DNA of 64,000 bases from contig MNZB01000002.1 in the NCBI GenBank assembly GCA_001873435.1, positions 65,620 to 129,619 of the forward strand, written 5' to 3'. The position numbers were made by a program, and so were the translations under genes. A model generated the notes under the pieces. The model ran no database searches and was not told where the DNA came from. It saw only the letters and a list, made by a program, of their open reading frames with translations. The DNA comes from Candidatus Pacebacteria bacterium CG2_30_36_39 (GTDB lineage: Bacteria; Patescibacteriota; Microgenomatia; UBA1400; PJMF01). Numbering within the stretch: position 1 is the first letter of the stretch; each line of letters begins with the position of its first letter. This document shows, in pieces, positions 30,402 to 53,185 of the stretch.

Positions 30402-30405
30402 CTGC

Positions 30406-31514: not shown

Positions 31515-31516
31515 GG

Positions 31517-33941: not shown

Positions 33942-34431
33942 TCAAACCTCCTTTCCTACTTACCTTGTAGCGAAAATCCATGTCTTTACTACCAATCAGA
34001 CTCTCCCAACTAACCAGATTCTTGACTTGATAAGCTTGAGGAGAGATCTTTTTCTTAACTTTAAGTTTGACCTGTTTTTGTTTGAGTACTTGCTCTTGTT
34101 CAAAGCTAGGCAAATACATGGTTCTTAAGTGAGTCTCGTTTTTGTTGTAGACATAATATTTTGCTCGCAGGTTGTAGCGAAGTAAGATTGCTAGCCAATC
34201 TACAACCACTTTGCCTTTAATTCTCAGAGATAGTAGCAGGCAGGTCACAAATACTACTGCCGAGACGATGAGTTTGTAGACTACAAAACTCATGGTAGGT
34301 GGGAGAATTGAGTAGATTAGAGTGGTAAAAAACACTGGTGCCATTAGAATCAGCATCTGCAAGAGGTTTAGACTTCCCACGATCTTGTCTTCTACAGTTG
34401 TAATTTGAGCTGGGATTACTCTAGTTCTCAT
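33913..34431 (-). CDS. small 2-TM membrane protein, VirB3-like position
   Basis: 172 aa. Two adjacent TM helices near the N-terminus. Immediately upstream of VirB4. Confidence 0.35.
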   Translation of the reverse strand: MRTRVIPAQITTVEDKIVGSLNLLQMLILMAPVFFTTLIYSILPPTMSFVVYKLIVSAVVFVTCLLLSLRIKGKVVVDWLAILLRYNLRAKYYVYNKNETHLRTMYLPSFEQEQVLKQKQVKLKVKKKISPQAYQVKNLVSWESLIGSKDMDFRYKVSRKGGLNVAFEQIKK

Positions 34432-35720: not shown

Positions 35721-35755
35721 TTAGTACTTTTGTTTACGGGCAGGAAGTAATGATC

Positions 35756-36145
35756 TTACTGACCAGAGCCAAAGGCAGTGCCAGCCAAGTCACCAATTAC
35801 ATTGGAGAGAACAAATGCCCCCAAGACTAGAGTAAGGCCGATAGCAGAGTACAAAATTGTTTTCTTGGATTTTTCTAGGGCTTCTGGGTTGCCAGAACTG
35901 GTGATATATCCCACTCCACCCCAGACGATAAATCCTGCAGCAACAAGACCAGAAAGGGTGACTAATACTTGGATCACACTTTGAATGAAGGTTTGGATCT
36001 TGCCCACGTCATTTGCTTGAGCCATTACGGGAGCGGCTGTCATCAACCATGTCATCACAACTGCTGGGATGATAATTTTTTTCTTCATACATACCCCTTT
36101 CTTGATCAGCGGGCAGTACTGAAAAATTGTTAATAAAAAAGCCAC
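35756..36145 (-). CDS. VirB2/TrbC-like conjugative pilin candidate
   Basis: Signal peptide MKKKIIIPAVVMTWLMTAAPVMAQA (likely true start at the internal Met). Two hydrophobic segments separated by GYITSSGNPEALEKSKKT. Confidence 0.5.
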   Translation of the reverse strand: MAFLLTIFQYCPLIKKGVCMKKKIIIPAVVMTWLMTAAPVMAQANDVGKIQTFIQSVIQVLVTLSGLVAAGFIVWGGVGYITSSGNPEALEKSKKTILYSAIGLTLVLGAFVLSNVIGDLAGTAFGSGQ

Positions 36146-36278
36146 CTCATCGTTGGGCAGCTATTTACCTGTTCAATTACTTTAATTAATTGAATCTGGA
36201 TCAAATTATATCAAGGGACTTGAGAAAGTCAAATTTTAGTATGTTGGCGCCTTAACTTTAGGTAGCATTCAGAATTCA

Positions 36279-38249
36279 CTACTCATATCTTAGAGCATTA
36301 AGTGCCGAGATCTTGGTAGCTCGTTTAGCTGGGAAGTAACCAGTGGCAATACCCACTAGCATTGATAGAAATAACACTGCGATCACGAAAATTGGTGGAA
36401 CGTAAGAAATATCTACAAACCCGACTCCCTTTACAATCGATAAGGCGGATAAGACGACGCTGAGTACCTTACCCACCAAAAGCCCCAAAACTAGTCCTAA
36501 AATCCCACCGTACAACCCCATTATCATGGATTCTGTGAGAAACAATGACTTAACTTCATCAGATTTCATGCCCATCGCTTTCATTAAGCCCACTTCACGT
36601 GTTCTCTCAAGTAGTGAGACAGTTAGAGTGTTAAACATCCCCAGTGCCGCTACCGATAAAGCCACCATTCCTAGAATAGAAAGTATTAATCTAAAATTAG
36701 CAAATAAGCTGTCAATTTGAGCTACTGTATCGGCAACGGATACAGTACCATAGCCTGCCGATTCGATTGTGCTTCTAACTTTGATCAAGTTGCTTTTGTC
36801 ATCCACAATCACTTTGGTTTGAGAAAACTTGTTAACTCCCATGGATCTAACGTCAATAAATGGCACGTAGATAATTGGCGTACCCTCATCTGCTATCACT
36901 CCCACAATGGTGTACTTAAGTGGGGCTGACTCAACTCGTTTACTTGGATCATCCAGGAGTTCTCCTACCACAACCATGGCTAGGTCTAGCTCACGACCAA
37001 TTGCCTCATTCTCCGAGATGTTAAGTAGTTGCAAGACTGATCGGTTAACTACTATTTGCTTTTTTGCCTCACTATTTATATCTACTTTTTCGATGTCTTG
37101 CTCATTTGCACTAGCTGATTCACTGGCAATCTCTACGACCGGCAAGCTCCCGTCAGTCTCATCAGTACTTACTCCCAACACTTGGCTCACAATTTCCCTG
37201 GGAGTAGCGGTCATGGATATTTCTGCTACAAACCCCTCTGCTTGAGTCTGAGTGTTGTCTTCCTCTCTTACAACCATGTACTCACCATCCTCGCAGTCGC
37301 CACTTTCTTCTATGTTGCAGGGAGTCTTATCCCACAGCAAATATGTTGACTTGACCCACTTGCCTAGTGGGACACCGCCCGCAGTTTCTCCAGCTTGACC
37401 TGCCTCACCATTGGACTCAAAATTCTCTCCCCAAACTTCAACTCCATCAGTATTACCTTCAATTCGCTTGGTATAGCCAATAATTGGGGAATCTGTACTT
37501 GGCTCTTCTCTCACCTTGAGAAACACTCCTTGTGTAATCGAGATTTCAACATCTCCAATTTCCTCACCCACCTCACGCGTCACAGAAGAAACACCCAAAA
37601 CCGGTGGCATATTAGTAGTATCAAAGGCGGTAGTATTGCTCTCAAATAAGTTGCCCTTAACAGGTTGTAAGGCAGAATACTTGAGGTAATCAGCGGTAGC
37701 ACCATAGACGGCAATATCGGAGACAGAGTTTTGATAAGACACTCTCCCTACAACTGCAATCAGGGGTAGGACGTCGGTAACATTGGTAATTTGTTTAAAC
37801 TTGGCAAGAGTGGCATCAGTCAAACTCAAGTCTGCTGACAGTCCAGGTACTACCTCGGCCTGCTTGAGCTCATCTAGTCTTGCCACACGTGAGATTACTA
37901 GCTGTTGCAAGCCATACCCAATCGACACTAAAAACACGATGAATGATATTCCAATTGCCATTCCTCCAATGGTAACAATTGTGCGAGTTTTCTTGGCCGC
38001 CATGTTTTTAAATGAAATCTCAATCAAGTACAAGCGAGAAACACCGCTCTTATCAGCCTTATCAAGCGACTTTACCCAGCTGTCAAATTTCTCTGAGACA
38101 GATCTTAACACGCGATTTTTTTGACCAAGCCTGTTTAGCAGTAAGGTAAACGAATACAAAATAGTCAATATAACAAAACTACTGATCTCATAAGTAGATC
38201 GCCAGAGGGTTTTTAGAATTGGTTTTTTGTTTCTTTTAAGTGTTTTCAT
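36279..38249 (-). CDS. ABC transporter permease, FtsX/MacB family with large extracytoplasmic domain
   Basis: 656 aa. N-terminal TM, ~400-aa periplasmic domain, C-terminal FtsX-type 3-TM bundle (LERTREVGLMKAMGMKSDEV). Confidence 0.75.
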   Translation of the reverse strand: MKTLKRNKKPILKTLWRSTYEISSFVILTILYSFTLLLNRLGQKNRVLRSVSEKFDSWVKSLDKADKSGVSRLYLIEISFKNMAAKKTRTIVTIGGMAIGISFIVFLVSIGYGLQQLVISRVARLDELKQAEVVPGLSADLSLTDATLAKFKQITNVTDVLPLIAVVGRVSYQNSVSDIAVYGATADYLKYSALQPVKGNLFESNTTAFDTTNMPPVLGVSSVTREVGEEIGDVEISITQGVFLKVREEPSTDSPIIGYTKRIEGNTDGVEVWGENFESNGEAGQAGETAGGVPLGKWVKSTYLLWDKTPCNIEESGDCEDGEYMVVREEDNTQTQAEGFVAEISMTATPREIVSQVLGVSTDETDGSLPVVEIASESASANEQDIEKVDINSEAKKQIVVNRSVLQLLNISENEAIGRELDLAMVVVGELLDDPSKRVESAPLKYTIVGVIADEGTPIIYVPFIDVRSMGVNKFSQTKVIVDDKSNLIKVRSTIESAGYGTVSVADTVAQIDSLFANFRLILSILGMVALSVAALGMFNTLTVSLLERTREVGLMKAMGMKSDEVKSLFLTESMIMGLYGGILGLVLGLLVGKVLSVVLSALSIVKGVGFVDISYVPPIFVIAVLFLSMLVGIATGYFPAKRATKISALNALRYE

Positions 38250-39031
38250 GATTTTTCTGTCTCGCTATTGGTAGGATTGATTGAGGACATAAGTTTTTTA
38301 AACCCACCGATTTTCCCTGCTAACTCATGACTCTTTGCTTGTCCCACAATTTTACCGTCAAACATAATTAGAGAGCGAGAGGCAAATGTCATGTACTCCA
38401 AGTCATGCGTAACCATGATAATAGTTCTACCCTCGTGATTGAGTCTCTGGAGTAACTCCATTAGCTCTTGGCCGGATTTGAAGTCTAGGTTGCCGGTTGG
38501 TTCATCAGCAATGATAATCTTGGGGCTAGTGACTACCGCGCGAGCCAAGGCTATTTTTTGTTGTTGACCACTTGATAGCTCGGTAGGGATGTAGTCCTGC
38601 CAGTTATCCATGCCTACCATTTTTAACACCTCAGACGCTTTCTTTTTGGCCTCATCATGGAGCTCACCATTGATTCGCAGGGCAAACATAATGTTTTCCA
38701 ACACAGTCAGAGCTTTGATCCAGTTGGGTTGCTGGTAAACCATCCCGACATCGTTTTTGCGAATCTCGGTTCGCTCATCCTCATTTAACCCTTGATAGAG
38801 TTGCTGTCCCAAAAACTCCACACTGCCAGTGGTTGGAGGCTCTAGTCCGAGTAAGATATGCAGTAGGGTTGACTTGCCACAACCTGATGGGCCCGTGATA
38901 ATGATAAACTCTCCGCTTGCGACTTGCAGATTGATCTCTTTGAGTACTGGTACTTTGGTAGATCTAACCTCGAAGGTCTTATTCAGATCTTTGACTGTGA
39001 TGACAGTTTGGGAGGAGTTTGCTTGATTCAT
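38246..39031 (-). CDS. ABC transporter ATP-binding protein (MacB/LolD-like)
   Basis: Walker A GPSGCGKST, signature LSGGQQQKIALARA, Walker B IIIADEPTGNLD. Start overlaps the target-gene stop. Confidence 0.9.
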   Translation of the reverse strand: MNQANSSQTVITVKDLNKTFEVRSTKVPVLKEINLQVASGEFIIITGPSGCGKSTLLHILLGLEPPTTGSVEFLGQQLYQGLNEDERTEIRKNDVGMVYQQPNWIKALTVLENIMFALRINGELHDEAKKKASEVLKMVGMDNWQDYIPTELSSGQQQKIALARAVVTSPKIIIADEPTGNLDFKSGQELMELLQRLNHEGRTIIMVTHDLEYMTFASRSLIMFDGKIVGQAKSHELAGKIGGFKKLMSSINPTNSETEKS

Positions 39032-39033
39032 AG

Positions 39034-42000
39034 TTATTTTGGTATGACTCCTGTCACAAAGCCAAATGCTTCGGACAAATTCTTAATGACCAGATCAAGG
39101 GCAGAACGAGTAGCCTTAGGGGCGATGGTGACCAAATCAATGCTTTGTGTATTATTACCGGTGCCGTCCTGAGAGATCGCTCGTAAGTGATAAACTTGGC
39201 TTGGCACGAGGCCTGACAAAATAACCGTGTGATTGTTGGTGAGATTGCCGTCATATTGGGACTTTTGAGAATAGGTATTGCCTGATCCCTGACCAAATTC
39301 AACTTGACTACTAGCTGGCTCATCTGTATCCCAGGTGACAATTAGTTGTGCCTTAACATCCCCGGCAGCAAACCAAACCGGCGGGATAGTGCCACCAATA
39401 ACTTTGAGATTAAGAATTTGAGGCGGTCTGGTATCGGTGGCAGTGGTGAAGCGCTGAATATCACTGGTTGCCTCGTTACCTAGTTTATCCCTACCCTTGA
39501 CCACCAAGAAGTACTTGGTTTGAGCCGCAAGGTTACGAATTATCATTGAATGAGCACCTTTTTCTAAGAGTACCTTGACTTCGTCCCGTGCTTCTCCAGC
39601 ATTGTTTTCTGGGTAGTAGGTCACAATCGAAGAGACCTCTGTATTGGTGCTCCAGGTCACGCGGATGGTAGTTTGAGCTGCATTAGCCACAGTTTCCAGG
39701 CGAACTCCCGAGATTTTGGGTCGGGGCAGGGTGGTGAAGTCGTTAATCTGATTATCGTATTCATAGTTATCGCTATCAAAAGTATTGATCTTATAGTAGT
39801 ACTTAGTCCCATCATCCAACTCTGCTAGCTGAGTAGTGTAGGTCGTCTCACTGGTTGAGGTAGAGACTTCTTTGACTGCCCCAAAATTAGTGGTCTTGCC
39901 GTAATAAATCTTGACTTTGGAGGCTCCCTTGACTGTGTATTGGATGATTCCTGAGGTGAGTCCCACGTTTTCGGCTGAGACATCAAATACAGTTGGGGCA
40001 GCCTGAGTGGTAAAACTGTTCTCGTCTGATTCTCCAGTGTTTCCATCTTCATCCGTCCACTTAGCCTTGTAATAGTAAGTAGTGCCAGCAGTTAGGCCAG
40101 TCAGATTGATCTCGTGGTCGGTAACTTGGCTAGAGCTACTTGGCTCCTCAGTGTTATACGAACCACTACTTGTGCCGTAAGCTACTTTGGAGTCAGCACT
40201 CCTGCTTGTACTCCAACTAATCTTGGCTTTTTTGGTGGTAATGCCTGACTCCGAAGGCTCAGAGGATAGAGTTGGAGCAGTGGTGTAGCGTCCGGTAGGA
40301 GTAATGGTGACGGCATTGGTGCCACTACTGGTCGCATTGGCGCCGTCTTTGGTGTAGATCTTGTAATAGTACTGGGCAGATTCAGGAGTGTTGTCTACAT
40401 ATGACAGGCCGCTAGTTGTCCCCACTTGAGAGAAAGTGGTGCCATCAGCTGAGCGATATACCAGATAGGTCAAGTTGCCTGCCCCTTGGTAGCTAGGTGC
40501 AGTCCAGGTCAGAGTGGCATACCACTTGGACTCAGATTTGATTGATGAGTCGGAGGCCACCAAATTACTGACATTATCAGGGTCAGTCGAGTTGAGGGTA
40601 AAAGTACCCGAGATATAGTTACTGGGGCTATAGTTATCCGCATCATCGACCGCTACCACGTAGACCGTATTACTCCCCTTATTTACCCCTGGTAGAGCCG
40701 TAGCATCCACGGTGATTGCCGTCCCGTTATCAATATATGTAGCGGCATTGCCAGTTATGGTTGAGAGTGTCGAGGGAGGAGCGACGTTGACCATGTAGTA
40801 GTAATTAGTTACACTCTGGCCTAATGTTGCAGTGGCCTCAGGCCAGCTCAGAGCAAAAGAGTTGGCCGTCGAAGAACTAGGAGCAACAGTAATAGTATCA
40901 CTCCCGCCAAAGGTTGGTGCAGCCCCGCCATACTCCAAACTACAGGTGCGAATACTAGCATCAGCGCTGACGTTTCCGGCTGCATCAACGCTACGAAAAT
41001 AGACAATGTTACTGCCGGTGGCGATACCGCTTCCGTCTTGCGCGTCAGTCAGGGTGCGGGATGTTTCTGAAGTGGGAATATAGTTATTAATTCCCAACAC
41101 TGACTCAGTTGTAGTTCCAAGCCAAGTGCCACCCGTGGTATTGATCTGATACTGCCAGCCCAAAGTCCCGGCGTTATCATCAACTGTCGCGGTTGCGCCA
41201 CTAGTAGGCCAGGAGAAGTTCATGTCCGCCACATTGGCAAAGCTCCCACCCGGACAAGAGACGTAGGAAACATTGGTAGGTGGGGTATTATCAAATCTAA
41301 ATTGGAATTGTTCACTTGCTCCAGTGAACACGTTTTCAGCGTTATCAATTGCTTTAATATTAAGATAATACGGATCACTGCCAGTAGTTAACCAAGTGCT
41401 ACCTCGATAGCTAGTGGTGGCAAAATCAATGCTGGTACCAGCCACGATAAACTGACAAGTCGAGCCGGCGGTAGATACCGGCGAGGTACCAAGCAAGCCT
41501 TTACTAGTGGCCGGATCTCCGTCAGGGTCAGTCCCCAAATATAAACAGTAGCCTTTGAGTCCCACCCCACCTGCATTATCAGCGCCAGCCGTCCAGCTAT
41601 AATACGGGGCAATATTATTTGTCCAGTCGTTACTGCTCATGCTAGTACCACCATTAGTTCTAGTCATCGCGATGGCCGAGGCATTAGTGTCAGGTGCCGC
41701 AGTATCAGTAGTGAGCCCAATACTCAGGTTGGTTATTGAAGGCGTATCCGCCCCACCAAAGCCCATAATGGCTTTAATTGAGATTTTTTGGGAAGTTACA
41801 GACAAGGCTTGCATAGCAGATTGAGTCAGCTCGGCGGCTGTGTTGACATGGGTAGTAGTGTTACTAGCTGTTGCCCATGCTCCACCATCCCAATAATTCC
41901 AACTCCCACCTGACTCACAAGTGGAGCCGTCATCTAGGCAGAGCTGGTAGACCACACTGGCGTTGCCGCTAGCCGTCACTCCGTCATCGCTACAGGTACT

Positions 42001-43614
42001 CCCCGTGAGAGTGCCCTCACAAAAGCTGTCCCATGAGGAAACGGAAGAATTGGAATAAGCCAGAGTCGTGTAGACACTGTAGGTGCCGTTTTGGGACAAG
42101 GTAAAGTCGTCTAAAATAACAGTCTTGCCTGACTTTACTAACACACCATAATTGCGGGATTCAGCAGCTCCCGTGACTTGACCCGCAAGTTTCCACCAGC
42201 CAGATCCCTGATCAGTGTAGGTAGTGGTGACAGTTGAGCCGTTGTAATAAAGCTGGGCAATCGAGGATGAGACAGTTCCTCCCTCACTCCCACTGGTGTT
42301 GTCATAGACATAAGCCGAAAGATCGTAAGTTGAGGTGTCACCGACGTTGACTGATTGGGTAACTTTAGCGTCAGAAATAGACCCCACCAAAATTTGGTCG
42401 CCGCCGGTCGCTTCGCGACCAAGAGAAGAGGAGAAAGAGGAAGAGAGGTCTACGGGATCACTGGCGCAGCGAAAGCCAAGAGCGCTGTACTGACCGCCTG
42501 GCGCATTACCCAGATTCAAAGCGAATGCCCCGGCGCTGGCCGTAAGACTCCAATTACCGCCGCGGCGGAAGGCATTGTTCAATGCCCCACCATAAACTTG
42601 ACCCATGCCGTGAGCTGATAGATAGCCACTAGCTGGCCCATATAGGTCAATAGCGCCCGCTGCTATATTGGCATGGTTCCAGTCTAACCAGCCGACAGTA
42701 GTATTAATTGCTTCTGTTTGCACATCACTATTCCAGTCCCAGACGTTGCCAGACATATCCCAAATCTCGGTGCCGTTACTAAGGGTTAGCTTGGCTTTAG
42801 TGTCTCGGCCTGTACCGTATTCTGGATCAGCGCCGTTGTAACCAACACTCGTGGTTTCACCCACATTACCTCGGAACATTCCACCACCCGCAGCTACAGT
42901 GGAGCCTACTGTGCCGTCTGCCCAGTTAGAGGCTTGGGACTCGGCATTTCTAGCAATGGTCATCCACTCAGTGTTAGAGATGAGATGATAGCCAGATGGA
43001 CAAGCTGAGAGTGCCTGGGTTTGAGTGATGTGCACAATTGGCGCACCGTTTGCTGAAGAGACCACCTTGGCAGTATCAAAGCTAGCAATGTCACGATAGT
43101 CTAGTCCAGAGCCTGAGTCAGCAGGAGCGCTACAGGTGGCAGCCGTATCACCGTCTCCGTCTGCTGTACAGTCATACTTGGCTTCATAGGCCATCGCTAA
43201 GAAGGCTTTGTCATCTCCACCCGTCATAAAGGTGCTGTTACCTGGTACGGGGATATATCCAGCAGGGGTAGTCGAGCCGGCAATAGGGGTGATCGACCAA
43301 GAGGAGTTGTCGGCAGAAAAATCAGGGTTAGTGAACTTGTTAACTCCAGAGACTGGATGAGCTCCAGAACCATCTACTGCCACCAGATTACTATCATAAG
43401 TGTAGTTAGCCGCCTCCCCGGTACTAAACGTCCAGTTTTTGCTAGTGTCATTGAGGGCAAATACATTGGGGAAGACCTCGAATAGTGCTAAATAGATACC
43501 AGTTACAAGACCAATAGAAGAAATCAGGACAGTAAACGCATTAAGCTGAAAGCGGGACAAATGCCATCTTGGGGAGAAGAAGTAGAGCTTGAGTTTGTGT
43601 AGTAAAGTCTTCAT
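39034..43614 (-). CDS. DGR target (variable) protein: N-terminal signal/anchor, FGE-sulfatase-type C-type-lectin fold carrying the VR, then Ser-rich linker and >1100 aa of FN3/Ig-like repeats
   Basis: 1526 aa. FGE-type motifs GYHLISNTEW, GNVWDW, RGGNW, GFRCASD. The VR at 42466..42562 matches the TR near the reverse transcriptase. FN3-like repeats (ISWSTSRSADSKVAYGTS...YYYKAKWTDEDGN). Confidence 0.8.
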   Translation of the reverse strand: MKTLLHKLKLYFFSPRWHLSRFQLNAFTVLISSIGLVTGIYLALFEVFPNVFALNDTSKNWTFSTGEAANYTYDSNLVAVDGSGAHPVSGVNKFTNPDFSADNSSWSITPIAGSTTPAGYIPVPGNSTFMTGGDDKAFLAMAYEAKYDCTADGDGDTAATCSAPADSGSGLDYRDIASFDTAKVVSSANGAPIVHITQTQALSACPSGYHLISNTEWMTIARNAESQASNWADGTVGSTVAAGGGMFRGNVGETTSVGYNGADPEYGTGRDTKAKLTLSNGTEIWDMSGNVWDWNSDVQTEAINTTVGWLDWNHANIAAGAIDLYGPASGYLSAHGMGQVYGGALNNAFRRGGNWSLTASAGAFALNLGNAPGGQYSALGFRCASDPVDLSSSFSSSLGREATGGDQILVGSISDAKVTQSVNVGDTSTYDLSAYVYDNTSGSEGGTVSSSIAQLYYNGSTVTTTYTDQGSGWWKLAGQVTGAAESRNYGVLVKSGKTVILDDFTLSQNGTYSVYTTLAYSNSSVSSWDSFCEGTLTGSTCSDDGVTASGNASVVYQLCLDDGSTCESGGSWNYWDGGAWATASNTTTHVNTAAELTQSAMQALSVTSQKISIKAIMGFGGADTPSITNLSIGLTTDTAAPDTNASAIAMTRTNGGTSMSSNDWTNNIAPYYSWTAGADNAGGVGLKGYCLYLGTDPDGDPATSKGLLGTSPVSTAGSTCQFIVAGTSIDFATTSYRGSTWLTTGSDPYYLNIKAIDNAENVFTGASEQFQFRFDNTPPTNVSYVSCPGGSFANVADMNFSWPTSGATATVDDNAGTLGWQYQINTTGGTWLGTTTESVLGINNYIPTSETSRTLTDAQDGSGIATGSNIVYFRSVDAAGNVSADASIRTCSLEYGGAAPTFGGSDTITVAPSSSTANSFALSWPEATATLGQSVTNYYYMVNVAPPSTLSTITGNAATYIDNGTAITVDATALPGVNKGSNTVYVVAVDDADNYSPSNYISGTFTLNSTDPDNVSNLVASDSSIKSESKWYATLTWTAPSYQGAGNLTYLVYRSADGTTFSQVGTTSGLSYVDNTPESAQYYYKIYTKDGANATSSGTNAVTITPTGRYTTAPTLSSEPSESGITTKKAKISWSTSRSADSKVAYGTSSGSYNTEEPSSSSQVTDHEINLTGLTAGTTYYYKAKWTDEDGNTGESDENSFTTQAAPTVFDVSAENVGLTSGIIQYTVKGASKVKIYYGKTTNFGAVKEVSTSTSETTYTTQLAELDDGTKYYYKINTFDSDNYEYDNQINDFTTLPRPKISGVRLETVANAAQTTIRVTWSTNTEVSSIVTYYPENNAGEARDEVKVLLEKGAHSMIIRNLAAQTKYFLVVKGRDKLGNEATSDIQRFTTATDTRPPQILNLKVIGGTIPPVWFAAGDVKAQLIVTWDTDEPASSQVEFGQGSGNTYSQKSQYDGNLTNNHTVILSGLVPSQVYHLRAISQDGTGNNTQSIDLVTIAPKATRSALDLVIKNLSEAFGFVTGVIPK
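42466..42562 (-). repeat. DGR variable repeat (VR) core; homology to TR extends 42456..42574
   Basis: 119-bp match to 45888..46006. 13 of 14 core mismatches have T in TR versus G/C/A in VR on the plus strand, i.e. A on the coding minus strand. Confidence 0.72.
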
Positions 43615-44462
43615 GTTAGTTGTTTCTTTTTTGAGGGAGGCAAGTAATTAGCTTTAGTTGACACTTTCTTACCACTTTTCTCTTCAAGCTCTTGTTTGGC
43701 GTTCCCAGCAATCTTACCACCTTCTTTGGCGGCTTGTTTGTTTTGGGAAAACCCTCGAGCATCTTTATTTTTAGCAATTTCGGTAGTAGAGGCCTCCCCC
43801 AGCATGGAGAAGATTAACTCCAGATCATTCATATGATCTCGCAAGTTCTCACGCTCAAGTCCTTTGAATTTTTTGTATTCTGAGGGAGTCATCCCAAAGG
43901 TAGCCTTGGAGATTTCTGCTGTTAGGATTGCATACTCGCGGTCTTGACCAACATTTCTCTTTTTCCATTCGTCTGTCAGAGTCTCGCGGATTTCTATTCC
44001 GCGCATGCGTTTCTCAATCCAAGAATCAGGATATCCTTTAGCCTTATATATGGCTCTAGTGCGTTTTGTGGCTAACTCTGGGTCTTCTATCTCTTGTACT
44101 CGTTCATAACCGACTTTGGCTAGCCAACGCTTGAAAGGTTCTGCTTTGGGAGAAGGGATAGACTGGATAAGTCTAAATATTCCCTCTGTATTCCAACAAT
44201 AAGCCTTTTGCCTACCACCTGGAGTTTCGATTTCTAGCATAAGGGGTGGTACAAATTGTACCCCCCCCTCATCGGTCAACTTAGCTAACTCCACATCTCT
44301 TGTTTTAAGTCTTTTGAAGTATTGGGATGGGTCTCTTGAATCTGTCAAAGATTGGATAACGTCGTTTATCACAAACCACCACTCATTATTGTGAATGGTT
44401 TTCCTTACTTTTTTGCCCTTAAATATGGCAATTTTAGTAGTAATTGTTTCTGGTTTTTTCAT
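43611..44462 (-). CDS. Bro-N domain protein (phage antirepressor-like)
   Basis: N-terminal IAIFKGKKVRKTIHNNEWWFVINDVIQSL resembles the Bro-N DNA-binding domain. 283 aa. Stop overlaps the target-gene start (ATGA). Confidence 0.55.
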   Translation of the reverse strand: MKKPETITTKIAIFKGKKVRKTIHNNEWWFVINDVIQSLTDSRDPSQYFKRLKTRDVELAKLTDEGGVQFVPPLMLEIETPGGRQKAYCWNTEGIFRLIQSIPSPKAEPFKRWLAKVGYERVQEIEDPELATKRTRAIYKAKGYPDSWIEKRMRGIEIRETLTDEWKKRNVGQDREYAILTAEISKATFGMTPSEYKKFKGLERENLRDHMNDLELIFSMLGEASTTEIAKNKDARGFSQNKQAAKEGGKIAGNAKQELEEKSGKKVSTKANYLPPSKKKQLT

Positions 44463-44565
44463 AGTTAATAAGCTCTATTCATCAATGACAAAATTAGCCA
44501 CCAATTTGCCTAATATTAATACTAGATTAGTGGTGAGTGTTTTGCAAGATGAGAGAAGACAATCG

Positions 44566-45663
44566 TTACTCAAATAAGCTCTTCATTAGTCCACGAGAGT
44601 CAGCGTGAGTTAAATGACCGATGATTGCGGCTTTGCTTGCCTCAAGTTCTTGAGTAGAGATAGTTTCATTTTTAAGTTGTTTCTTTTTCTTTCGCCAATT
44701 TCTCTCCATTCTAAGTAGAGTATTTCCACGAATCAAAATGTGATCATAAAAAACCCGGTAACCCACAAAGGGCACACCATTTTTGACGTCTTTGATATTA
44801 AGCTTCTTAGGGTGAAGGGACAAAGCCAAATTGTCTTTTAGATAAACATCTATCGTAGTTATTAGTTCTTTGAGGTACTCCTTGTCAGGATGAATGACGT
44901 AAAAATCATCCATATATCTGCCGTACCACTTGAGTTTTAACCTGTCCTTCATAAAATGATCAAGCTCATTAAGATAGATATTAGCAAATAACTGACTAGT
45001 TAAGTTGCCAATTGGTAATCCCACTCTTTTTTGAGTATTTATGCCAGGCGGTTGATAAGTACTGTTATTTGTAAAAAGAGTAAGTTGTTCTTTTGGGACT
45101 GAAGAGTTGCGATGATTGCTGGTGTGAGTAACAATAATTTTTTTAATCAAGGATCTTGTCTCTTCGCACTTGATAGTACGATTGATAATCGCGAGCAATT
45201 TATCCCAAGAAATACTCTGAAAAAACTTACTAATATCGCACTGCAGAGCATAAATCGGCGTATCTTTGCCATAAACACATCTAGCTGCCATGAGAAACTT
45301 TTTGAGTCTTTTAGCACCAAGGTGTGTTCCTTTTTCAATTCGACAAGCGTAAGCGTCATAAATGAACTGTTTTTCAAATAATGGCTGGATCTGTGCAACT
45401 AGCGAGTGTTGAACTACTCTGTCTCGAAAAGCAGGAGCAGCGATATTTCTTGCCTTTGGCTCATGCACTACGAAGTATGTATAAGCCTGGGGAGTGTATC
45501 GGTGGCGTGATAGCTCCCAACTGAGTCTATTGACATTTTCTTCCAAAAAGAAAGAAAAGACACACACTTTTCTCTTGTAGTGATTATCTAGTTGAGCTTT
45601 TTTGAAAGCATTATGTAAGTTTTGTAAGTTATATATTTTGTTAAACATGCTAATAAACGACAA
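44566..45663 (-). CDS. DGR-type reverse transcriptase
   Basis: 365 aa. RT motifs incl. LPIGNLTSQLFANIYLNELD and YGRYMDDFYV (YMDD). Compact size without maturase/endonuclease domains. TR immediately upstream. Confidence 0.85.
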   Translation of the reverse strand: MSFISMFNKIYNLQNLHNAFKKAQLDNHYKRKVCVFSFFLEENVNRLSWELSRHRYTPQAYTYFVVHEPKARNIAAPAFRDRVVQHSLVAQIQPLFEKQFIYDAYACRIEKGTHLGAKRLKKFLMAARCVYGKDTPIYALQCDISKFFQSISWDKLLAIINRTIKCEETRSLIKKIIVTHTSNHRNSSVPKEQLTLFTNNSTYQPPGINTQKRVGLPIGNLTSQLFANIYLNELDHFMKDRLKLKWYGRYMDDFYVIHPDKEYLKELITTIDVYLKDNLALSLHPKKLNIKDVKNGVPFVGYRVFYDHILIRGNTLLRMERNWRKKKKQLKNETISTQELEASKAAIIGHLTHADSRGLMKSLFE

Positions 45664-45887
45664 ACCCAGCTTTCGCAGGGCTTGTCTCTCGTACCCTTTG
45701 TTTTTTAGTGCCTATTTGCTTTACCATTCGCGCTTTGAGAATGGTAAAAATACGGGCATTATTTTTGTCTAACATAACATCAGACTGGAAAAAATCACTG
45801 TGATCCTAAAAACCCTGGATATATGTCCGTGAACACATACCACTCGTTCTGGCTACCACTTTGGGTACCTAAGTGGTAATAGCAGTA

Positions 45888-46006
45888 ATCGCTGGCACAG
45901 CGAAAGCCAATATTGTTGTTCTGATTGCCTGGCGCATTATTCAGATTCAAAGCGAATGCCCCGGCGTTGGACGTATTATTCCAATTACCGCCGCAGAGGA
46001 AGGCAT
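45888..46006 (-). repeat. DGR template repeat (TR); the overlapping 78-aa ORF 45795..46031 is not a real gene
   Basis: Encodes GGNWNNTSNAGAFALNLNNAPGNQNNNIGFRCAS, rich in AAY Asn codons. It corresponds to RGGNWSLTASAGAFALNLGNAPGGQYSALGFRCAS in the target. Confidence 0.72.
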
Positions 46007-46045
46007 GCTGCGTTTTGTTAATTTTCCCCACGTTTAATCATACAT

Positions 46046-46384
46046 TTATTTACCTTTTCTCATCCAGCAATTTAACATTCTGCCAATCTCATTCAACTTT
46101 TCTGATCCCAGTAAATATTGCTTAACACTCATCAGGTGTAAGTCTTTAGTGAGGCGCAACAAAATTCTTAATAAATCTAACTCGTTTGAACTTAGTTTCT
46201 GAAAAGAATCTCTCTCAGCTCCTCTAGCGTTGTTGGCGTTTATCAAGCTTACCAGTAGTGACAAGCCCTCTTCTTCTAGTTTTGTACCTAAAATTTGTCG
46301 ATGGTTTTTGGGCAGGCGATTAATAATTGGGTATAGCCATAGTACAAAGTCATATGTTTTTTGGTGCAAGATAAATTTTTCCAT
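46046..46384 (-). CDS. Avd-like accessory variability determinant (small four-helix protein)
   Basis: 112 aa, basic/helical, immediately upstream of the TR-RT pair in the same orientation. Confidence 0.55.
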   Translation of the reverse strand: MEKFILHQKTYDFVLWLYPIINRLPKNHRQILGTKLEEEGLSLLVSLINANNARGAERDSFQKLSSNELDLLRILLRLTKDLHLMSVKQYLLGSEKLNEIGRMLNCWMRKGK

Positions 46385-46591
46385 TAGTTCATTATGACAA
46401 TTAAAACTTATTTCGTCAGTTAGTTAAGGGGCCTTGCCCTTCATTTTGCAAGGGCTACGTAAATTGTTCCCTTTGGTCACAACCATTGCAAAACTCACCC
46501 CGCTTCTGGTTGCACCAGGTAAGGGAAGCATGGGCATGCTTCCCAAATATTAATTACTAGGGAAGCGCTACAAGAAAGGAAGGGTAGATAT

Positions 46592-46906
46592 ATGAAACTA
46601 CTCACAAAAACATTATTAAACAGGTTTGGAGCAGTCGGCAGACAAGAGGAGTCGGCCGATCCCTTGGTAATTGCCAAGTTCTTCAATCCCACAGGTGCGG
46701 GCACTTGGTACGCCACAGAATTTGATCCAGACTCCAAAGAGTTCTTTGGGTTCGTTTCGATTTTTGGTGATCACAATGACGAGTGGGGATACTTCTCCCT
46801 GGCAGAGCTTGAAAGCTATCAAGGCAAGTTCGGTCTTGGGATTGAGCGGGATCTGTATTTTGACGAGCAGAGAATCAGTGAAGTTGTACCCGGAGCAAAA
46901 TTATAA
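46592..46906 (+). CDS. DUF2958-like protein (family common on conjugative elements)
   Basis: AKFFNPTGAGTWYATEFDPDSKEFFGFVSIFGDHNDEWGYFSLAELES pattern, recalled from memory of the DUF2958 family. Confidence 0.45.
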   Translation: MKLLTKTLLNRFGAVGRQEESADPLVIAKFFNPTGAGTWYATEFDPDSKEFFGFVSIFGDHNDEWGYFSLAELESYQGKFGLGIERDLYFDEQRISEVVPGAKL

Positions 46907-47021
46907 ATGATTAACTGCCGCGGGGCTAACCACCCCGCAGATAGAATTAGAAAATATGATTAGAGGTTAAAATATCATGTGATATTATTGATATGTAGTA
47001 TTAAAACTAAGCAATAAAATT

Positions 47022-47255
47022 ATGACACTTGTCTTTCTTAAGCCTAATTGGCTAACAATTGTCCTTTTTAGCATATTACTGATGCTACCGGTTATAGATG
47101 GCTATCCCGCATTAGTTTTAATTTTTTCTTACTTATGGCTTGGTGAGTTATACGGACTTTTATTGATACTAGGTTTTACGATACTTGCTTATATTGTTGC
47201 ATCAGGCATATCAAGATTAACAATATTTATTACAAATAAATTGTTAAATAAATAA
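47022..47255 (+). CDS. small hypothetical membrane protein
   Basis: 77 aa, two TM helices. Confidence 0.3.
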   Translation: MTLVFLKPNWLTIVLFSILLMLPVIDGYPALVLIFSYLWLGELYGLLLILGFTILAYIVASGISRLTIFITNKLLNK

Positions 47256-47270
47256 TACAGACGCAGTCAC

Positions 47271-47768
47271 ATGATTAAGAGATTAACCCCAATCATACTC
47301 ATAGTCATGGCAATTAGTGCTGGATATTTTTATTTAATTAAACCCACCGAAGAAAGTTTAGAAGCTCCAGGGAAGGACTGGGAATCAGCCAAGAAAGTAG
47401 AAGATTATTTTATTGAACGCCTCCACATGACTGTTCCTGAAGCCGAGCAGATCAGATCCAAGCCAGGAGTTGATGGAACAGTTGACTTGCGAATCAGTAC
47501 AGAAGTTACACTTGATGCTCTTATAGGCAATCTATATCACTATGGATTTATCAGGGATGAAAAAGCTTTTAGGTACGCTCTTGAGCACACCAAAGACACA
47601 ACCCCAAGCGATAAAGCTCTTAAGGTAGGAAATAACGGAACAATCGATACAAACGCAGAATATAGAATCTCTGAGAACATGAGTGCTTGGGAACTGGCTG
47701 ATTTACTGCTCAACAAACCCGCTGGACATTACTCATATGATAAATATAATTATTTTTTCATGCCTTAG
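47271..47768 (+). CDS. hypothetical secreted protein
   Basis: 165 aa with signal anchor. Confidence 0.4.
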   Translation: MIKRLTPIILIVMAISAGYFYLIKPTEESLEAPGKDWESAKKVEDYFIERLHMTVPEAEQIRSKPGVDGTVDLRISTEVTLDALIGNLYHYGFIRDEKAFRYALEHTKDTTPSDKALKVGNNGTIDTNAEYRISENMSAWELADLLLNKPAGHYSYDKYNYFFMP

Positions 47769-48542
47769 TTACTCGTCATCTGAATCGACCTTTTCCCAGT
47801 TACCAGCAAAAGCCTGCTCGTGAGTAGCTAAATAGACCTCTGTTTCATCTAGCGATGTCTCGTCATAAATTCTCCCTAAGTGTTTTTTGAGATAGATCAA
47901 GCTAGCAAACCCTGGACAGATAAATAGAATGGTTGGGAAAGGGTGTCCCGTTTTCTCCTCAAATTTGCCATCTTCCAGATAATCGTTATATTGCTCGATT
48001 CTTCGCCTGAGAGCAAAGCGTGGCGACGCGTCGTCGATTAGTTCGACAAAATAACGCTTAGTTTCATTCTTCTTATCAACTCTGGCAAAATACGCATCCG
48101 GCAGGGGGTGAAGTAGATAAGGATGAGCCAATAGATCAGTTTTGGTAAAAAAGTGAAGAGTATGAGCTGATTTCTGGGAGTCAGTTATTAGGTGAAGATA
48201 ATACTCAGCAATAAATGAAGACCTAGCGATAAACTGTTGAGAGCGCATTTTCTCTCGATAGACTCGCTTGAGAGCTCGCTTGTCTATACCGTCTCTACCT
48301 TCCAATATCTTAATACTGCCTGAGGCTAGGTAATATACGGCTGGTTGATTGGCTTGACCTAGTGAGCGAGTGTAGTGTTTGCCGATGTAGTTGTGAGTAG
48401 TGAGAATTTGTAGGTGATAGTTCGTTAGACGGATATTTTTGTGACTCAGAAGTTTAGAGATTTGACGACTAGTTAAGAAACGAAAACGATAAAGATAGTG
48501 AAGTATTGTAAGTTGGGATGCTGGTAATTGTTGACTGGCCAT
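47769..48542 (-). CDS. Replic_Relax family protein (replication-relaxation, winged helix)
   Basis: N-terminal LTILHYLYRFRFLTSRQISKLL wHTH typical of this family. 257 aa. Adjacent to the coupling protein. Confidence 0.55.
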   Translation of the reverse strand: MASQQLPASQLTILHYLYRFRFLTSRQISKLLSHKNIRLTNYHLQILTTHNYIGKHYTRSLGQANQPAVYYLASGSIKILEGRDGIDKRALKRVYREKMRSQQFIARSSFIAEYYLHLITDSQKSAHTLHFFTKTDLLAHPYLLHPLPDAYFARVDKKNETKRYFVELIDDASPRFALRRRIEQYNDYLEDGKFEEKTGHPFPTILFICPGFASLIYLKKHLGRIYDETSLDETEVYLATHEQAFAGNWEKVDSDDE

Positions 48543-48677: not shown

Positions 48678-51275
48678 TCACGGCAACAAAGAATTGACCT
48701 TATTAGATCTCCTTACGATCTCCTTTTTAACTGATACTTTCTCACTCTCTACAAACTTTCGGGCATACAATCTACGAGAGGACTCAACTACTGTATCTGC
48801 CACTTTCTGATTAGACTCCAATTCTACTGGCACCGTTATCCCAGAGAATGGCGCCTCTGGATTAATTGCTCCTAATCTCATGTAAAAGCGATAAGAGGGT
48901 AAACTAGCAATCTCACCTGGCTCAATATATGGCCGGAATTGAGGCAAGATGACTCGCTCGTCCTCAGGGTTGGCTGTTCGAAAGCAAATCACTGTCCCAG
49001 TATTAGCCAAAGTAATATTAACCAGTGAGCCATCTTCTAGTTGAGAGGTGGTTTGATGAGCCAAAATTGCATTTAGTTTGTATTTTCTAGCCTCAGATAA
49101 AATTTGCGCAAAAGCAGGAGTCGCAAAGTTCTGAAACTCATCCACATATAAGTAGAAGTCACGGCGCTCGTCTTGGGTCATCCGAGCCCGTTTGAGGGCT
49201 GCTAACTGAATCTTGGCCATGATCAATACTCCAAAGACACTCGAGTTATCCTCACCAATCTTACCTTTTGAAAGATTGCATAGCAGAATTTTGTCATCAT
49301 TCAAGATCGAGTCAAAGTTAACAGTGGACTTGCTCTGCTCTAGGATTCTCTTAGCAGTGGGAGAAAATAAAAACCTTCCAATCTTGTTAGTAATCGGCGA
49401 GATCATCTTCACTTTTTGATAGTCTCCCGCCTTGGCAAACTCATACTTCCAGAAGTCCAAAAGATTCTCATCCGTCAGCCCTTTCACTACTGACTTACGA
49501 TACTTTGTGTTGATCAGGAGCTTGTAGACGGTAAAGAGGGTTGCACCAGGGACGGTAAAAGCGGTATGGATAGTGTTTCTTAAGATATATTCCATCCTGG
49601 GGCCAGAGTATTTGTCGGTATAGATCTTGTGGAATACCGAGATAATACTCTCAGCAACAAACTCTTTTTCTCGGATGGCTTCCTCAGCTGATAAGTTAGG
49701 AGTTAACTCAAGTAAGTTAATACCTATCGGATAGCCAATGTCATCAGGATTAAAGTAAACCACATCTTTGATTCTCTTCTTAGGAATAACTGTCAAAATC
49801 TGCTCAATCAAGTCTCCATGAGGATCAACGATTGCTAGACCTTTGTTGTGATCAATATCTTGTTTAATCATCGATAGGAGCATGGTTGACTTACCAGTTC
49901 CGGTTGCCCCCAGCACATAAACATGGCGTCTGCGCTCATCCAGACTCAAGCCAATCTCAGTTTTTACCCCGCCATAAGTATTTCTGCCAAAGTAGAGATC
50001 ACACACAGCTTTTTGTTTGAGCGAGAGTGGTGCCGGAAGTTCTTTGCTGTGAGACTTCACAAGATCCTCAGTCTTGGCAGTGCTGGTAAATGGGAAATGA
50101 TAGATATCACCAATCTCTGAAGCAGAGAGAATTGACTTGTTAAGCAGTCGGGGCAAGCGGTTAGTGAATAAGTGTCTTTTGAAACGACTAATTAACTTTA
50201 GTTTCCAAGCTAGAGACTTGACTAACATTTGATAGCTTGAGTTATTGAATGAAGACAAGGTAGAGACAAATCCTTTTTCATGATTTCCTAGGCTGCCTTT
50301 ATTGCTACTCACCACCAACAGTCGTAGTGAGGTGCTAAATAGTTGTTGATCTAGTTTGTGCTTTACCAACCCTTCCATTTCTTCCTGATAGGGGTTATTA
50401 GTTTTTTGTTGTTGATCTTTGGCGTGGATTGACAGGAGTGGCCCTTCTTTGCCGTCGGTTAATAAGAACACTAGTAAGCCAATCGGGAACAGGAGAATTT
50501 GTAGAGCTACATATAGTAGTTGCTGAAAGATGGCGAGGTAGGGGTGCTCTTGCAAGCGATCATTGATGTTAACCACCAAGTCATTACCAGAATATATCAA
50601 TTTGGAGATTCTCTTAATATCCGCCACCATACTTTTGTTTATTGGTGCCACAATGATTTGAAAGGCAATCAACTCATTCTCTTTGAGCTTTGTCATGCTC
50701 CCAGTCATGTAAGCAATTGGGTCGTGCTTATCTAGTGACTCTTGCTTCTTAAGAGGTAGGGCAAAGTGATTGGAGAGCTTGAATTCAGTGATTTTGTGAG
50801 GCTTTGTCTCTAGGTCTTGTGGTAAGTAATCAGCAACTTTTTTGATAGCAATCCCAGGTAAATAAGAAAAAAGGCTTTTCTCTACCAGTTCTACATCATT
50901 TTTATCAACTCTAATCAGGTATCTAATCCCAGCTTCCTTAGTAGAGACTATTTCAAAAGCATAGTTCTTGGAGATATTAAAGAATCGCTCCAATCTCGAG
51001 GCTTGTCTTGCTAGCCCATGAAGCATGTTAAAGAGTTGTTCAGTGGTAAAGGGGTTTTGCTCGGTAATCCTCAGGGGTTTGGCCTCAATTATAATTTGTG
51101 GTCTGTTTTGGAGCTTGTGGGTCAGTAAATATCTAGTCAAATGATACGCGAGAAACAAAAGAGCCCAAACAGCGATTAGTGCAATTGAAGAGTTTAACCA
51201 AAAAGAAAGATCAATATCAGATAAATATCGAGCAGGAGTTTGAAGTTTTAAGAATATCTCACTAAGTGTATACAT
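48678..51275 (-). CDS. type IV coupling protein (VirD4/TraG/TraD family)
   Basis: 865 aa. N-terminal TM helices. Walker A VLGATGTGKST, Walker B YLYVDEFQNFA. Confidence 0.85.
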   Translation of the reverse strand: MYTLSEIFLKLQTPARYLSDIDLSFWLNSSIALIAVWALLFLAYHLTRYLLTHKLQNRPQIIIEAKPLRITEQNPFTTEQLFNMLHGLARQASRLERFFNISKNYAFEIVSTKEAGIRYLIRVDKNDVELVEKSLFSYLPGIAIKKVADYLPQDLETKPHKITEFKLSNHFALPLKKQESLDKHDPIAYMTGSMTKLKENELIAFQIIVAPINKSMVADIKRISKLIYSGNDLVVNINDRLQEHPYLAIFQQLLYVALQILLFPIGLLVFLLTDGKEGPLLSIHAKDQQQKTNNPYQEEMEGLVKHKLDQQLFSTSLRLLVVSSNKGSLGNHEKGFVSTLSSFNNSSYQMLVKSLAWKLKLISRFKRHLFTNRLPRLLNKSILSASEIGDIYHFPFTSTAKTEDLVKSHSKELPAPLSLKQKAVCDLYFGRNTYGGVKTEIGLSLDERRRHVYVLGATGTGKSTMLLSMIKQDIDHNKGLAIVDPHGDLIEQILTVIPKKRIKDVVYFNPDDIGYPIGINLLELTPNLSAEEAIREKEFVAESIISVFHKIYTDKYSGPRMEYILRNTIHTAFTVPGATLFTVYKLLINTKYRKSVVKGLTDENLLDFWKYEFAKAGDYQKVKMISPITNKIGRFLFSPTAKRILEQSKSTVNFDSILNDDKILLCNLSKGKIGEDNSSVFGVLIMAKIQLAALKRARMTQDERRDFYLYVDEFQNFATPAFAQILSEARKYKLNAILAHQTTSQLEDGSLVNITLANTGTVICFRTANPEDERVILPQFRPYIEPGEIASLPSYRFYMRLGAINPEAPFSGITVPVELESNQKVADTVVESSRRLYARKFVESEKVSVKKEIVRRSNKVNSLLP

Positions 51276-53158: not shown

Positions 53159-53185
53159 TGTCCTAAACCACTAGACGATGGGGCC
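53110..53185 (-). tRNA. tRNA-Glu (anticodon CUC), CCA encoded
   Basis: Manual cloverleaf: acceptor GGCCCCA/TGGGGTC, D-arm GTCT-AGTGGTTTA-GGAC, anticodon arm CTAGG-TTCTCAT-CCTGG, T-arm TGGGG-TTCGATT-CCCCA, ACCA. The D-arm TCGTCTAGTGG...GGACA is typical of tRNA-Glu. Confidence 0.85.

Follow-up and report, generated by a model that had tools for sequence, protein, structure and literature searches.

The window analysed here is a 64,000-nt stretch of contig MNZB01000002.1 (positions 65,620 to 129,619) from Candidatus Pacebacteria bacterium CG2_30_36_39, an uncultured groundwater organism of ultra-small cell size. Its positions 39034-46384 hold a gene cassette that we read as a complete, active and canonical diversity-generating retroelement (DGR) of a Patescibacteria lineage, with the variable repeat (VR) placed inside a surface protein; the probability of this reading is about 0.88. 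On the minus strand, avd (accessory variability determinant), the template repeat (TR), a structured spacer, the reverse transcriptase (RT) gene, a Bro-N gene and the gene of the 1526-aa diversified target follow one another, and beyond the target lies an ATP-binding cassette (ABC) pair of MacB/FtsX type (Table 1). Genes of a type IV secretion system (T4SS) are found on both sides of this series. The mechanism of the DGR is canonical, and the architecture of its target is both unusual and conserved.

Table 1. Coordinates of the features discussed (window positions, unless a related locus is named).
Feature	Position	Strand	Basis or remark
T4SS mating-pair genes	30912-36145	-	Pfam; downstream of the MacB-type gene
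MacB/FtsX-type permease	36279-38249	-	Pfam FtsX, MacB_PCD; NCBIfam best MacB, LolC/E, FtsX
ABC ATPase, LolD/FtsE/MacB type	38246-39031	-	Pfam ABC_tran; NCBIfam best LolD, DevA, FtsE
Target gene, 1526-aa surface protein	39034-43614	-	Exact protein match (OIP74397.1 / PIR64960.1)
Fibronectin type III (FN3)/Ig-like beta-sandwich string and short conserved C-terminal helix (ALDLVIKNLSEAFGF)	39037-42084	-	Pfam Pur_ac_phosph_N, fn3; AlphaFold
Beta-sandwich, residues 388-510	42085-42453	-	AlphaFold; Foldseek
Hairpin GGTCGC-GAA-GCGACC	42406-42420	-	36 nt past the VR, in coding sequence
3' end of TR/VR homology, resembling an initiation of mutagenic homing (IMH) site	42457-42465	-	GCCAGTGAT in VR, GCCAGCGAT in TR
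VR	42457-42575	-	119 nt; residues 348-386 of 1526
C-type lectin (CLec)/FGE-sulfatase-type fold, residues ~130-386	42457-43227	-	Pfam FGE-sulfatase, residues 186-384; AlphaFold
N-terminal hydrophobic helix, residues 21-53	43456-43554	-	Hydropathy; AlphaFold helix 21-51; ends VFA/LND
Bro-N gene	43611-44462	-	Pfam Bro-N, E = 4e-13
DGR RT	44566-45648	-	360 aa from ATG; Pfam RVT_1; open reading frame (ORF) reaches TTG at 45663
Structured spacer of the DGR RNA, TR to RT	45649-45887	-	Covariation, 20 loci
TR	45888-46006	-	119 nt; 30 adenines on coding strand
avd, 112 aa	46046-46384	-	Pfam bAvd, E = 7.7e-20; NCBIfam DivGenRetAVD
Three genes, one DUF2958	46592-47768	+	Between coupling protein/Replic_Relax and avd
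Replic_Relax (PF13814) protein	47769-48542	-	Pfam
T4SS coupling protein (T4CP)	48678-51275	-	Pfam
Large serine recombinase	51599-53158	+	Pfam
tRNA-Glu(CTC)	53110-53185	-	ARAGORN, Rfam; abutted by the serine recombinase
Separate-target locus L021	19901-26196
Locus L024, truncated divergent RT beside a headless fibre gene	55-4440
Separate-target locus L032	5585-12691
Separate-target locus L076	6505-12574

The VR and TR align without gaps over their 119 nt at 85% identity, with an offset of 3431. A preliminary description of this DNA had already recorded the near-repeat, although its VR coordinates lay one base too low. On the coding (minus) strand, the TR base is an adenine at 13 of the 18 mismatches (binomial P = 3.8e-5, given 30 adenines in 119 nt), so that the adenine bias recognised earlier stands; the tally of 13 of 14 given for the core (42466-42562) becomes 13 of 15 on recounting. 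The five non-adenine mismatches of the window allele are 42566 T>G, 42564 T>C, 42540 T>G, 42466 T>C and 42460 C>T. When the mismatches of the window and 19 related loci were pooled, with the TR/VR pairs of the latter located through TR homology, 234 of 270 fell at a TR adenine, against 15 at T, 14 at C and 7 at G. The TR and VR peptides are as first written, and the variation is carried by AAY codons, 12 in the TR, at the variable residues. A stop codon cannot be reached from any TR codon by adenine substitution, and the number of protein variants encodable by this system has an upper bound of about 10^16.

The gene ahead of the TR exceeds the NCBIfam equivalog cut-off for a DGR Avd (DivGenRetAVD, 88.1 bits against 80), in agreement with its earlier designation as Avd-like. 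The RT carries IGNLTSQ and YMDD, the pattern by which DGR-clade RTs were recognised being (I/L/V)GxxxSQ in motif 4 plus YMDD. Its previously described 365-aa ORF with YMDD is present, and only the start is revised: the ATG at 45648, giving the 360 aa called on the sister contigs, is the probable initiation codon. The best sequence match among solved structures is a 328-aa RT (8ub7_A, E = 1.9e-42), with retron-type and group II intron RTs at 5.6e-19 and weaker; judging from a 328-aa bRT, we take 8ub7 to be the bRT of phage BPP-1. Full-length alignments were obtained with the RT of Vibrio phage VP585 and others (34-38% identity for the matches listed), and the 160 matching RT records include Bordetella, Bacteroides, Faecalibacterium and crAss-like phages, some of these phage groups being DGR carriers. 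Motifs, the PDB sequence match and the phage alignments together argue for placing the RT in the DGR clade. A group II intron or retron RT was ruled out by the score ratios and by the presence of Avd and a TR/VR pair.

Between TR and RT, an RNAalifold consensus of 20 loci contains 33 base pairs, 22 of them with compensatory changes (covariation term, -6.44 kcal/mol). The spacer RNA common to these loci folds into three hairpins and contains the conserved loop TTTACGGA as well as an ATCAC that never varies. In the window, hairpins lie at about 45818-45841 (loop TTCACGGA) and at 45710-45757, and ATCAC at 45800-45804, where it could pair with the GTGAT end of the TR. In the Rfam search the spacer RNA matched no family at threshold, which tRNA alone reached. 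A perfect 10-bp inverted repeat, GGGAAGCATG-CC-CATGCTTCCC, was also observed at 46523-46544, where avd and the DUF2958 gene of the plus strand diverge from an intervening region of 207 nt, and is a candidate operator or bidirectional terminator.

The target protein has 155 homologues at 50-92% identity, and its 90%-identity cluster holds 48 sequences. In an alignment of 19 sequences, A53 is invariant and D56 nearly so at the conserved VFA/LND boundary, and the preceding hydrophobic helix may be either a signal peptide or a membrane anchor. In the AlphaFold model of residues 1-520 (predicted local distance difference test [pLDDT], 81), the CLec domain ends exactly at the VR, which supplies its last 39 residues. 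The top Foldseek match of this model in the PDB is the DGR variable protein TaqVP (5vf4; E = 6.5e-6; probability, 1.00), and Mtd (1yu4) also matches, so that Pfam, AlphaFold and Foldseek agree with the preliminary description in placing the VR at the end of an FGE-sulfatase-type CLec fold. The next beta-sandwich (residues 388-510) matches CBM16, CBM61, CBM22 and the C-terminal domain of a phage tailspike, and its predicted structure resembles carbohydrate-binding modules (CBMs). The protein is completed by some nine more beta-sandwiches of the FN3/Ig type and by a conserved tail at the C-terminus, residues 500-1526 being modeled as a domain string that ends in a short helix (pLDDT, 87). Foldseek matches of this string are multi-FN3/Ig chains, namely thick-filament proteins, gp130, fibronectin and the GhpA base. 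The VR is thus followed by 1,140 residues, and the internal position described earlier (more than 1100 aa downstream) is real. The full-length target matched nothing among solved structures or in NCBIfam; the Pfam scan returned FGE-sulfatase and FN3-like families only, with no PrgB-type homology, and no LPXTG motif was visible. The CLec domain would be the ligand-binding head of a surface fibre that attaches to host or partner cells.

The activity of the DGR was apparent from sister contigs of other samples, which were compared with the window over 11,581 nt (35534-47114). They differ from it at 6 and 17 positions, every one within 42466-42555, and the encoded proteins (P0131 and P0133) carry 4 and 10 substitutions over 1526 aa, all in residues 349-385. 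TR adenines account for 6/6 and 15/17 of these differences, and at the two remaining sites (42540 and 42466) the sister allele has the TR base. Differences confined to the VR and centred on TR adenines are what fresh mutagenic retrohoming predicts, and the regained TR bases at 42540 and 42466 in one sister allele suggest that it was newly copied from the TR. Assembled contigs of different samples therefore indicate that the DGR is active, with ongoing mutagenic retrohoming.

A scan of species-representative genomes yielded 79 loci related to the target, whose informative record titles name many Patescibacteria lineages, and their gene content was determined by tblastn of the window proteins. 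All 79 share the family-defining module corresponding to residues ~550-1520. An avd gene and an RT gene lie immediately upstream of the target in 23 loci, every one of which has a CLec head. Each of these DGR-bearing loci has a TR/VR pair, with the VR in the interior of a 4.6-kb target gene (about nt 1020-1300); the arrangement singled out as unusual in the preliminary description is therefore conserved as well. A VR at the C-terminus, a typical but non-defining trait of DGRs, was found neither in the window nor in the 23 related loci. The other 56 loci have in common only the C-terminal ~900 residues, their complete genes encode about 940-3,224 aa, and the heads of these DGR-less fibres include Laminin_G_3/ConA-like and DUF2341 domains. 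A CLec head without a detected RT was seen in L044 (truncated upstream) and L050. In the latter, from Shapirobacteria (L050:9962-14584), the VR equivalent is divergent in sequence (…GIYSLSLSSSSSYLYPGIGFRCAI), and the 10 kb upstream contain neither Avd nor RT; apparently the DGR was lost from this locus or operates in trans.

Three further loci (L021, L032 and L076) contain a canonical DGR with a small, separate target of 252-352 aa, a C-terminal VR and 16-18 mismatches at TR adenines, the L032 target, the only one scanned, being a CLec of the Lcl_C/DUF1566 type. Transcription of this DGR diverges from that of a 'headless' fibre gene (about 1,030-1,090 aa), and in L024 a truncated divergent RT stands at the contig end beside another headless fibre gene. 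The ABC/MacB pair follows the headless gene in L024, L032 and L076, and L032 also has the recombinase-T4CP context. These separate-target loci look like the unfused counterpart of the window gene. Since the lectin stands beside the rod in one lineage and is fused to the N-terminus of the rod in another, a functional pairing of the two is suggested; the conserved C-terminal end of the rod would have had to stay free, which would have forced the VR into the interior of the protein.

In 73 of the 79 loci the ABC ATPase gene comes immediately after the gene of the giant protein, and the MacB-type permease gene is present in 71; the exceptions are mostly truncated contigs. An FtsX-type permease with a core domain and a separate LolD/FtsE-like ATPase identify the pair as a MacB/FtsX-type (type VII) ABC system, and the NCBIfam scores of both proteins lie below the equivalog cut-offs. 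The hydrophobic segments of the permease (residues 20-38, 88-120 and 512-641) leave a stretch of ~390 residues that we read as a large extracytoplasmic domain. Translational coupling of the target to a MacB/FtsX exporter had been proposed, and the close junctions are there (a 2-nt gap between target and ABC genes, an ATGA overlap between ABC and MacB genes); the pair is not specific to the DGR, being found in 71-73 of the 79 loci, most of them DGR-less.

The ATGA overlap of Bro-N with the target and its position between RT and target, both described earlier, were likewise found, whereas its membership in the cassette was not upheld. The gap between RT and target holds Bro-N in the window, L001, L010 and L014; KilA-N in L002 (with a similar ORF, by eye, in L014 and L019); AbiEii in L003 and L017 (similar ORF in L015 and L045, by eye); Fic in L005; NYN in L006; PIN in L038; and MNT plus HepT in L077. 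In the remaining loci examined it holds nothing, and the RT abuts the target. Bro-N was thus found in 4 of the 79 loci, and it is absent from L002 despite a target that is 86% identical. Because the gap content varies so widely, Bro-N is interchangeable cargo in a permissive slot and no component of the DGR. The gap (43611-44565 in the window, with its counterparts in L001-L077) is in itself a hot spot for small mobile cargo of the addiction/defence type, including the AbiEii toxin-antitoxin, PIN/VapC and MNT-HepT. A prophage, which Bro-N and KilA-N might bring to mind, was rejected: virion genes are lacking, T4SS genes are present instead, and Bro/KilA are interchangeable cargo.

An internal VR would place the signals for retrohoming within coding sequence. 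At the 3' end of the TR/VR homology, the L082/83 allele has the TR base at 42466 and not at 42460, so that the 3' limit of information transfer would lie between these positions, inside GCCAGTGAT. The difference between T (VR) and C (TR) recurs in L001, L002, L005, L012, L014, L015, L019 and L077. A GC-rich IMH and a hairpin had been suggested for the 3' end of the VR: no long GC-only IMH was found there, and the hairpin proved to lie 36 nt beyond the VR. This hairpin encodes part of LGREATGG (residues 398-405), a loop at the start of the beta-sandwich, and relatives have GGCCGC-NNN-GCGGCC, CCGGC-CGC-GCCGG, CCGGC-GTA-GCCGG or CCGGA-CGA-TCCGG at the equivalent site. In the window, a C-to-T change in one arm is offset by a G-to-A change in the other, at the price of an Ala-to-Thr replacement. 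Of 23 distinct loci, 19 have a perfect stem of at least 5 bp in the 80 nt that follow the VR, compared with 22% of windows elsewhere in those genes, and the relatives show stem changes in both arms. The hairpin is accordingly a candidate cis element for target recognition, similar to that of BPP-1.

The surroundings of the cassette suggest a mobile element. The T4SS gene set comprises a VirB2-like pilin, a polytopic membrane protein with an N-terminal pilin domain, PrgI/VirB3, a split VirB4 and an M23 hydrolase. The split VirB4 (31517-33941) consists of a 206-aa TraC-N-like protein and a 603-aa P-loop protein in overlapping ORFs. A TrsD-like N-terminal fragment is common in Patescibacteria T4SS clusters (PMC12102498), and the split VirB4 fits this pattern. 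Features of an integrative and conjugative element (ICE) that were found include the recombinase beside tRNA-Glu and the channel genes (pilins, PrgI, split VirB4 and M23) together with the T4CP; the relaxase candidate is the Replic_Relax protein alone, which has no NCBIfam match. The order of the T4SS genes is kept in L001, L002, L014, L017 and L019 and is inverted in L003, six loci having the full gene order in common. T4CP or Replic_Relax lies upstream in 13 loci (downstream in the inverted L003), 12 of them DGR-bearing, and a serine recombinase adjoins the T4CP in L001, L002, L003, L032 and L077. The ICE/T4SS context reported at first is therefore present in the window and in 13 of the 23 DGR-bearing loci, and not in all of them, and the term 'ICE-like' can be defended. 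Another early claim, that the cassette belongs to one long minus-strand transcription unit together with the T4SS genes, fails, because the plus-strand genes at 46592-47768 intervene before avd and a strong promoter-like site (11 of 12 positions matching) lies between the MacB and pilin genes; the plus-strand genes rule out a single transcription unit.

Several observations weigh against the reading of an active DGR with an internal VR, carried by an ICE-like element. One non-adenine mismatch (42540) lies inside the VR interior of the window allele, and the case for activity is built on assemblies of different samples rather than on reads. The hairpin is absent or altered in L013, L015 and L077, its statistics overstate the support since the loci are related, and the palindrome is partly due to the coding of Gly-Arg-x-Ala-Ala; for the latter two reasons, support for the hairpin is good and not conclusive. 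The adhesin role of the target, its topology (cleaved signal or N-terminal anchor) and its MacB-type link are putative. As for mobility, there is no convincing direct repeat over 22-56 kb that could mark att sites and no canonical relaxase, and no empty integration site was found, the element being present on all 23 contigs examined that have the flanking gene (two distinct places are shown, 20 similar ones being collapsed). The mismatches at other than adenine positions could also be taken as signs of a decayed remnant, in which the similarity of TR and VR is historical and retrohoming has ceased. In L010, L012, L014, L019, L033 and L038 the target frame is interrupted at the VR or at most a few tens of residues from it (query residues ~324-383), and L019, L033 and L038 have small indels relative to the TR. 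In these six metagenome-assembled genome (MAG) loci, all DGR-bearing, the breaks are probably assembly artefacts of VR heterogeneity, with real inactivation possible, and they coincide with sites where population heterogeneity tends to corrupt assemblies. Sister contigs that are identical over 11.6 kb save for VR positions, nearly all of them TR adenines, an allele with TR bases restored at two sites, and intact RT, Avd and target ORFs leave decay with very little credibility. Scarcely more plausible is the view that the DGR has its own accessory factor in Bro-N and, in the MacB/ABC pair, its own exporter of the variable protein. The ATGA overlaps and the 2-nt gap do suggest translational coupling, but the slot of Bro-N is elsewhere empty or taken by unrelated genes (toxin-antitoxin, KilA-N, Fic or NYN), and the ABC/MacB pair also follows the fibre in loci among the 56 without a linked DGR of the window type.

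A different question is whether the diversified fibre serves the co-resident T4SS as an adhesin for recognition of recipients or hosts, in the manner of the R64 shufflon/PilV or PrgB of pCF10. In the window, L001, L002, L014, L017 and L019, the cassette sits between T4CP/Replic_Relax and the T4SS channel genes, and T4CP, Replic_Relax or VirB4 is nearby in 13 of 23 DGR-bearing loci but in 1 of the 56 others (Fisher P = 5e-8). Moreover, a 2025 survey of Patescibacteria T4SS clusters found no PrgB-like adhesin in them and mentions no DGR (PMC12102498). Yet the module of fibre and ABC pair mostly lies on the chromosome, no T4SS being located less than 10 kb away, 10 of the 23 DGR-bearing loci have no T4SS genes in the sequence available (3-4 of them being truncated), the promoter-like site separates the MacB gene from the pilin gene, and an ICE-borne DGR adhesin of Bacteroides is dispensable for transfer (bioRxiv 10.1101/2024.11.15.621889). 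We consider a role as the adhesin of the T4SS unlikely.

By analogy with Bordetella phage BPP-1, an RNA spanning the TR and the structured spacer would be transcribed, a complex of RT and Avd would copy it into cDNA with misincorporation opposite adenines, and the cDNA would replace the VR in the target gene. Directionality would come from the short IMH-like end (GCCAGTGAT) and probably also from the GC-rich hairpin downstream. The conserved C-terminal module may work with the co-transcribed MacB/FtsX-type ABC pair in export, extraction, anchoring or mechanical actuation. If this partnership holds, a new head would be added at the N-terminus, and the VR would become internal for that reason. 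A wider picture can be drawn, tentatively and with rather low confidence: a conserved surface apparatus of Patescibacteria might consist of an FN3 rod, an exchangeable N-terminal lectin head and a MacB-type ABC motor, and one lineage might have acquired a DGR-programmable CLec head on T4SS-bearing elements, with a rapidly retargetable specificity of attachment or transfer for the element or its ultra-small host and with the cis signals for retrohoming moved into coding sequence.

The closest mechanistic parallel is the BPP-1 DGR, which shares with the window the avd-TR-RT order, adenine-specific transfer from TR to VR, AAY codons and a variation-tolerant CLec fold; in both, a spacer RNA follows the TR, and a GC-rich hairpin (in the window a candidate cis element) lies past the VR. 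The BPP-1 target, Mtd, is among the structural matches. Unlike the phage-borne BPP-1 system, that of the window resides on a bacterial chromosome or ICE, its target is downstream of the RT rather than upstream of avd, and its VR covers residues 348-386 of 1526, whereas that of Mtd is at the C-terminus. The hairpin of the window family also differs: its stem of 5-8 bp closes a loop of 3 nt, and it stands within coding sequence, about 36 nt downstream of the VR. TaqVP of Thermus aquaticus shares the FGE-type CLec fold and is the best structural match to residues ~130-386, but its sequence identity is 14%, and it is a protein of 381 aa with a terminal VR and no downstream domains. The DGR/LdtA system of Legionella pneumophila and the ICE-borne DGRs of Bacteroides are, like that of the window, cellular DGRs on ICEs that diversify a surface CLec protein. 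What they diversify is a small lipoprotein or pilin (in Bacteroides, the tip adhesin of type V pili) with the VR at its C-terminus, in contrast to the 1526-aa fibre with its internal VR and MacB-type ABC pair, and their hosts are diderm and use other T4SS classes, whereas the monoderm-type T4SS of the window suggests that its host is presumably monoderm. The ABC pair resembles the FtsEX/MacB/LolCDE type (type VII) in its separate LolD/FtsE-like ATPase and in a permease that combines the transmembrane domain of FtsX with the periplasmic core domain of MacB. It departs from that type in the unusually large extracytoplasmic domain (~390 aa), in scores below every NCBIfam equivalog cut-off, and in its partner, a giant FN3 fibre instead of a hydrolase, lipoprotein or small-molecule substrate. 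With conjugation adhesins of the PrgB type, the fibre would be comparable by position and function only.

Among known DGRs, those of Patescibacteria, also called the candidate phyla radiation (CPR), were reportedly first surveyed by Paul et al. in 2017. Clade 2 of Roux et al. 2021, a clade restricted to Patescibacteria, agrees with the window element in phylum, cellular and aquatic setting, Avd-type gene and CLec target (PMC8144416). The window element has probably been counted already in bulk DGR surveys, its genome having been public since about 2016. In the 2021 study, a C-terminal VR is described as near-universal and is explained by the need of cis elements for an intergenic position (PMC8144416), and a 2024 survey placed the VR at the end of the gene in 87% of cases (PMC11661182). 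The window family breaks this rule in 23 species-level loci, and so provides a conserved, active counter-example to the explanation by intergenic signals. A hairpin written into a loop-coding stretch is, moreover, a natural test of the cis requirements of DGRs. In the literature searched, to which Paul et al. 2017 did not belong, no description of the fibre and MacB module or of its T4SS linkage was found. What is new here is the conserved internal-VR architecture with coding-embedded signals, the attachment of a DGR to a phylum-wide module of fibre and MacB-type ABC pair, and the frequent carriage of the DGR on T4SS-bearing mobile elements. The family offers concrete candidate genes for the recognition of hosts or recipients by Patescibacteria episymbionts, and an instance of accelerated protein evolution that is able to spread horizontally within the phylum.

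Fibre, DGR and T4SS genes 50-86% identical to those of the window also occur in records titled Pseudomonadales, Gammaproteobacteria, Anaerolineae, Omnitrophota and Bdellovibrionales (L001, L002, L005, L009 and others). These titles are most likely taxonomic mislabels, or the contigs are mis-binned, rather than evidence of transfer outside the phylum. The window encodes a second large surface protein of 1229 aa (18465-22154, plus strand) with Big_13, Big_3 and FN3 Ig-like domains; it is unrelated to the DGR target, and no ABC pair adjoins it. A 24-nt perfect direct repeat, ATTACTCAGTAAGGGGATTTGAAC (27075-27124 and 27573-27623), with weaker similarity upstream, brackets a 0.5-kb low-GC segment; it was rejected as an att pair (27101/27600), as it does not match the end of tRNA-Glu. 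Around it, beyond the M23 hydrolase gene, a low-GC stretch (29-34%) at 22000-30900 encodes a ThsB-like TIR protein, a PLD-like protein and a weak match to a ScaI-type restriction enzyme. The TIR protein and the adjoining 158-aa gene have no counterpart in the related loci, a comparison that did not extend to the PLD- and ScaI-like genes, and the stretch probably represents defence cargo, variable in content, at the distal end of the element.

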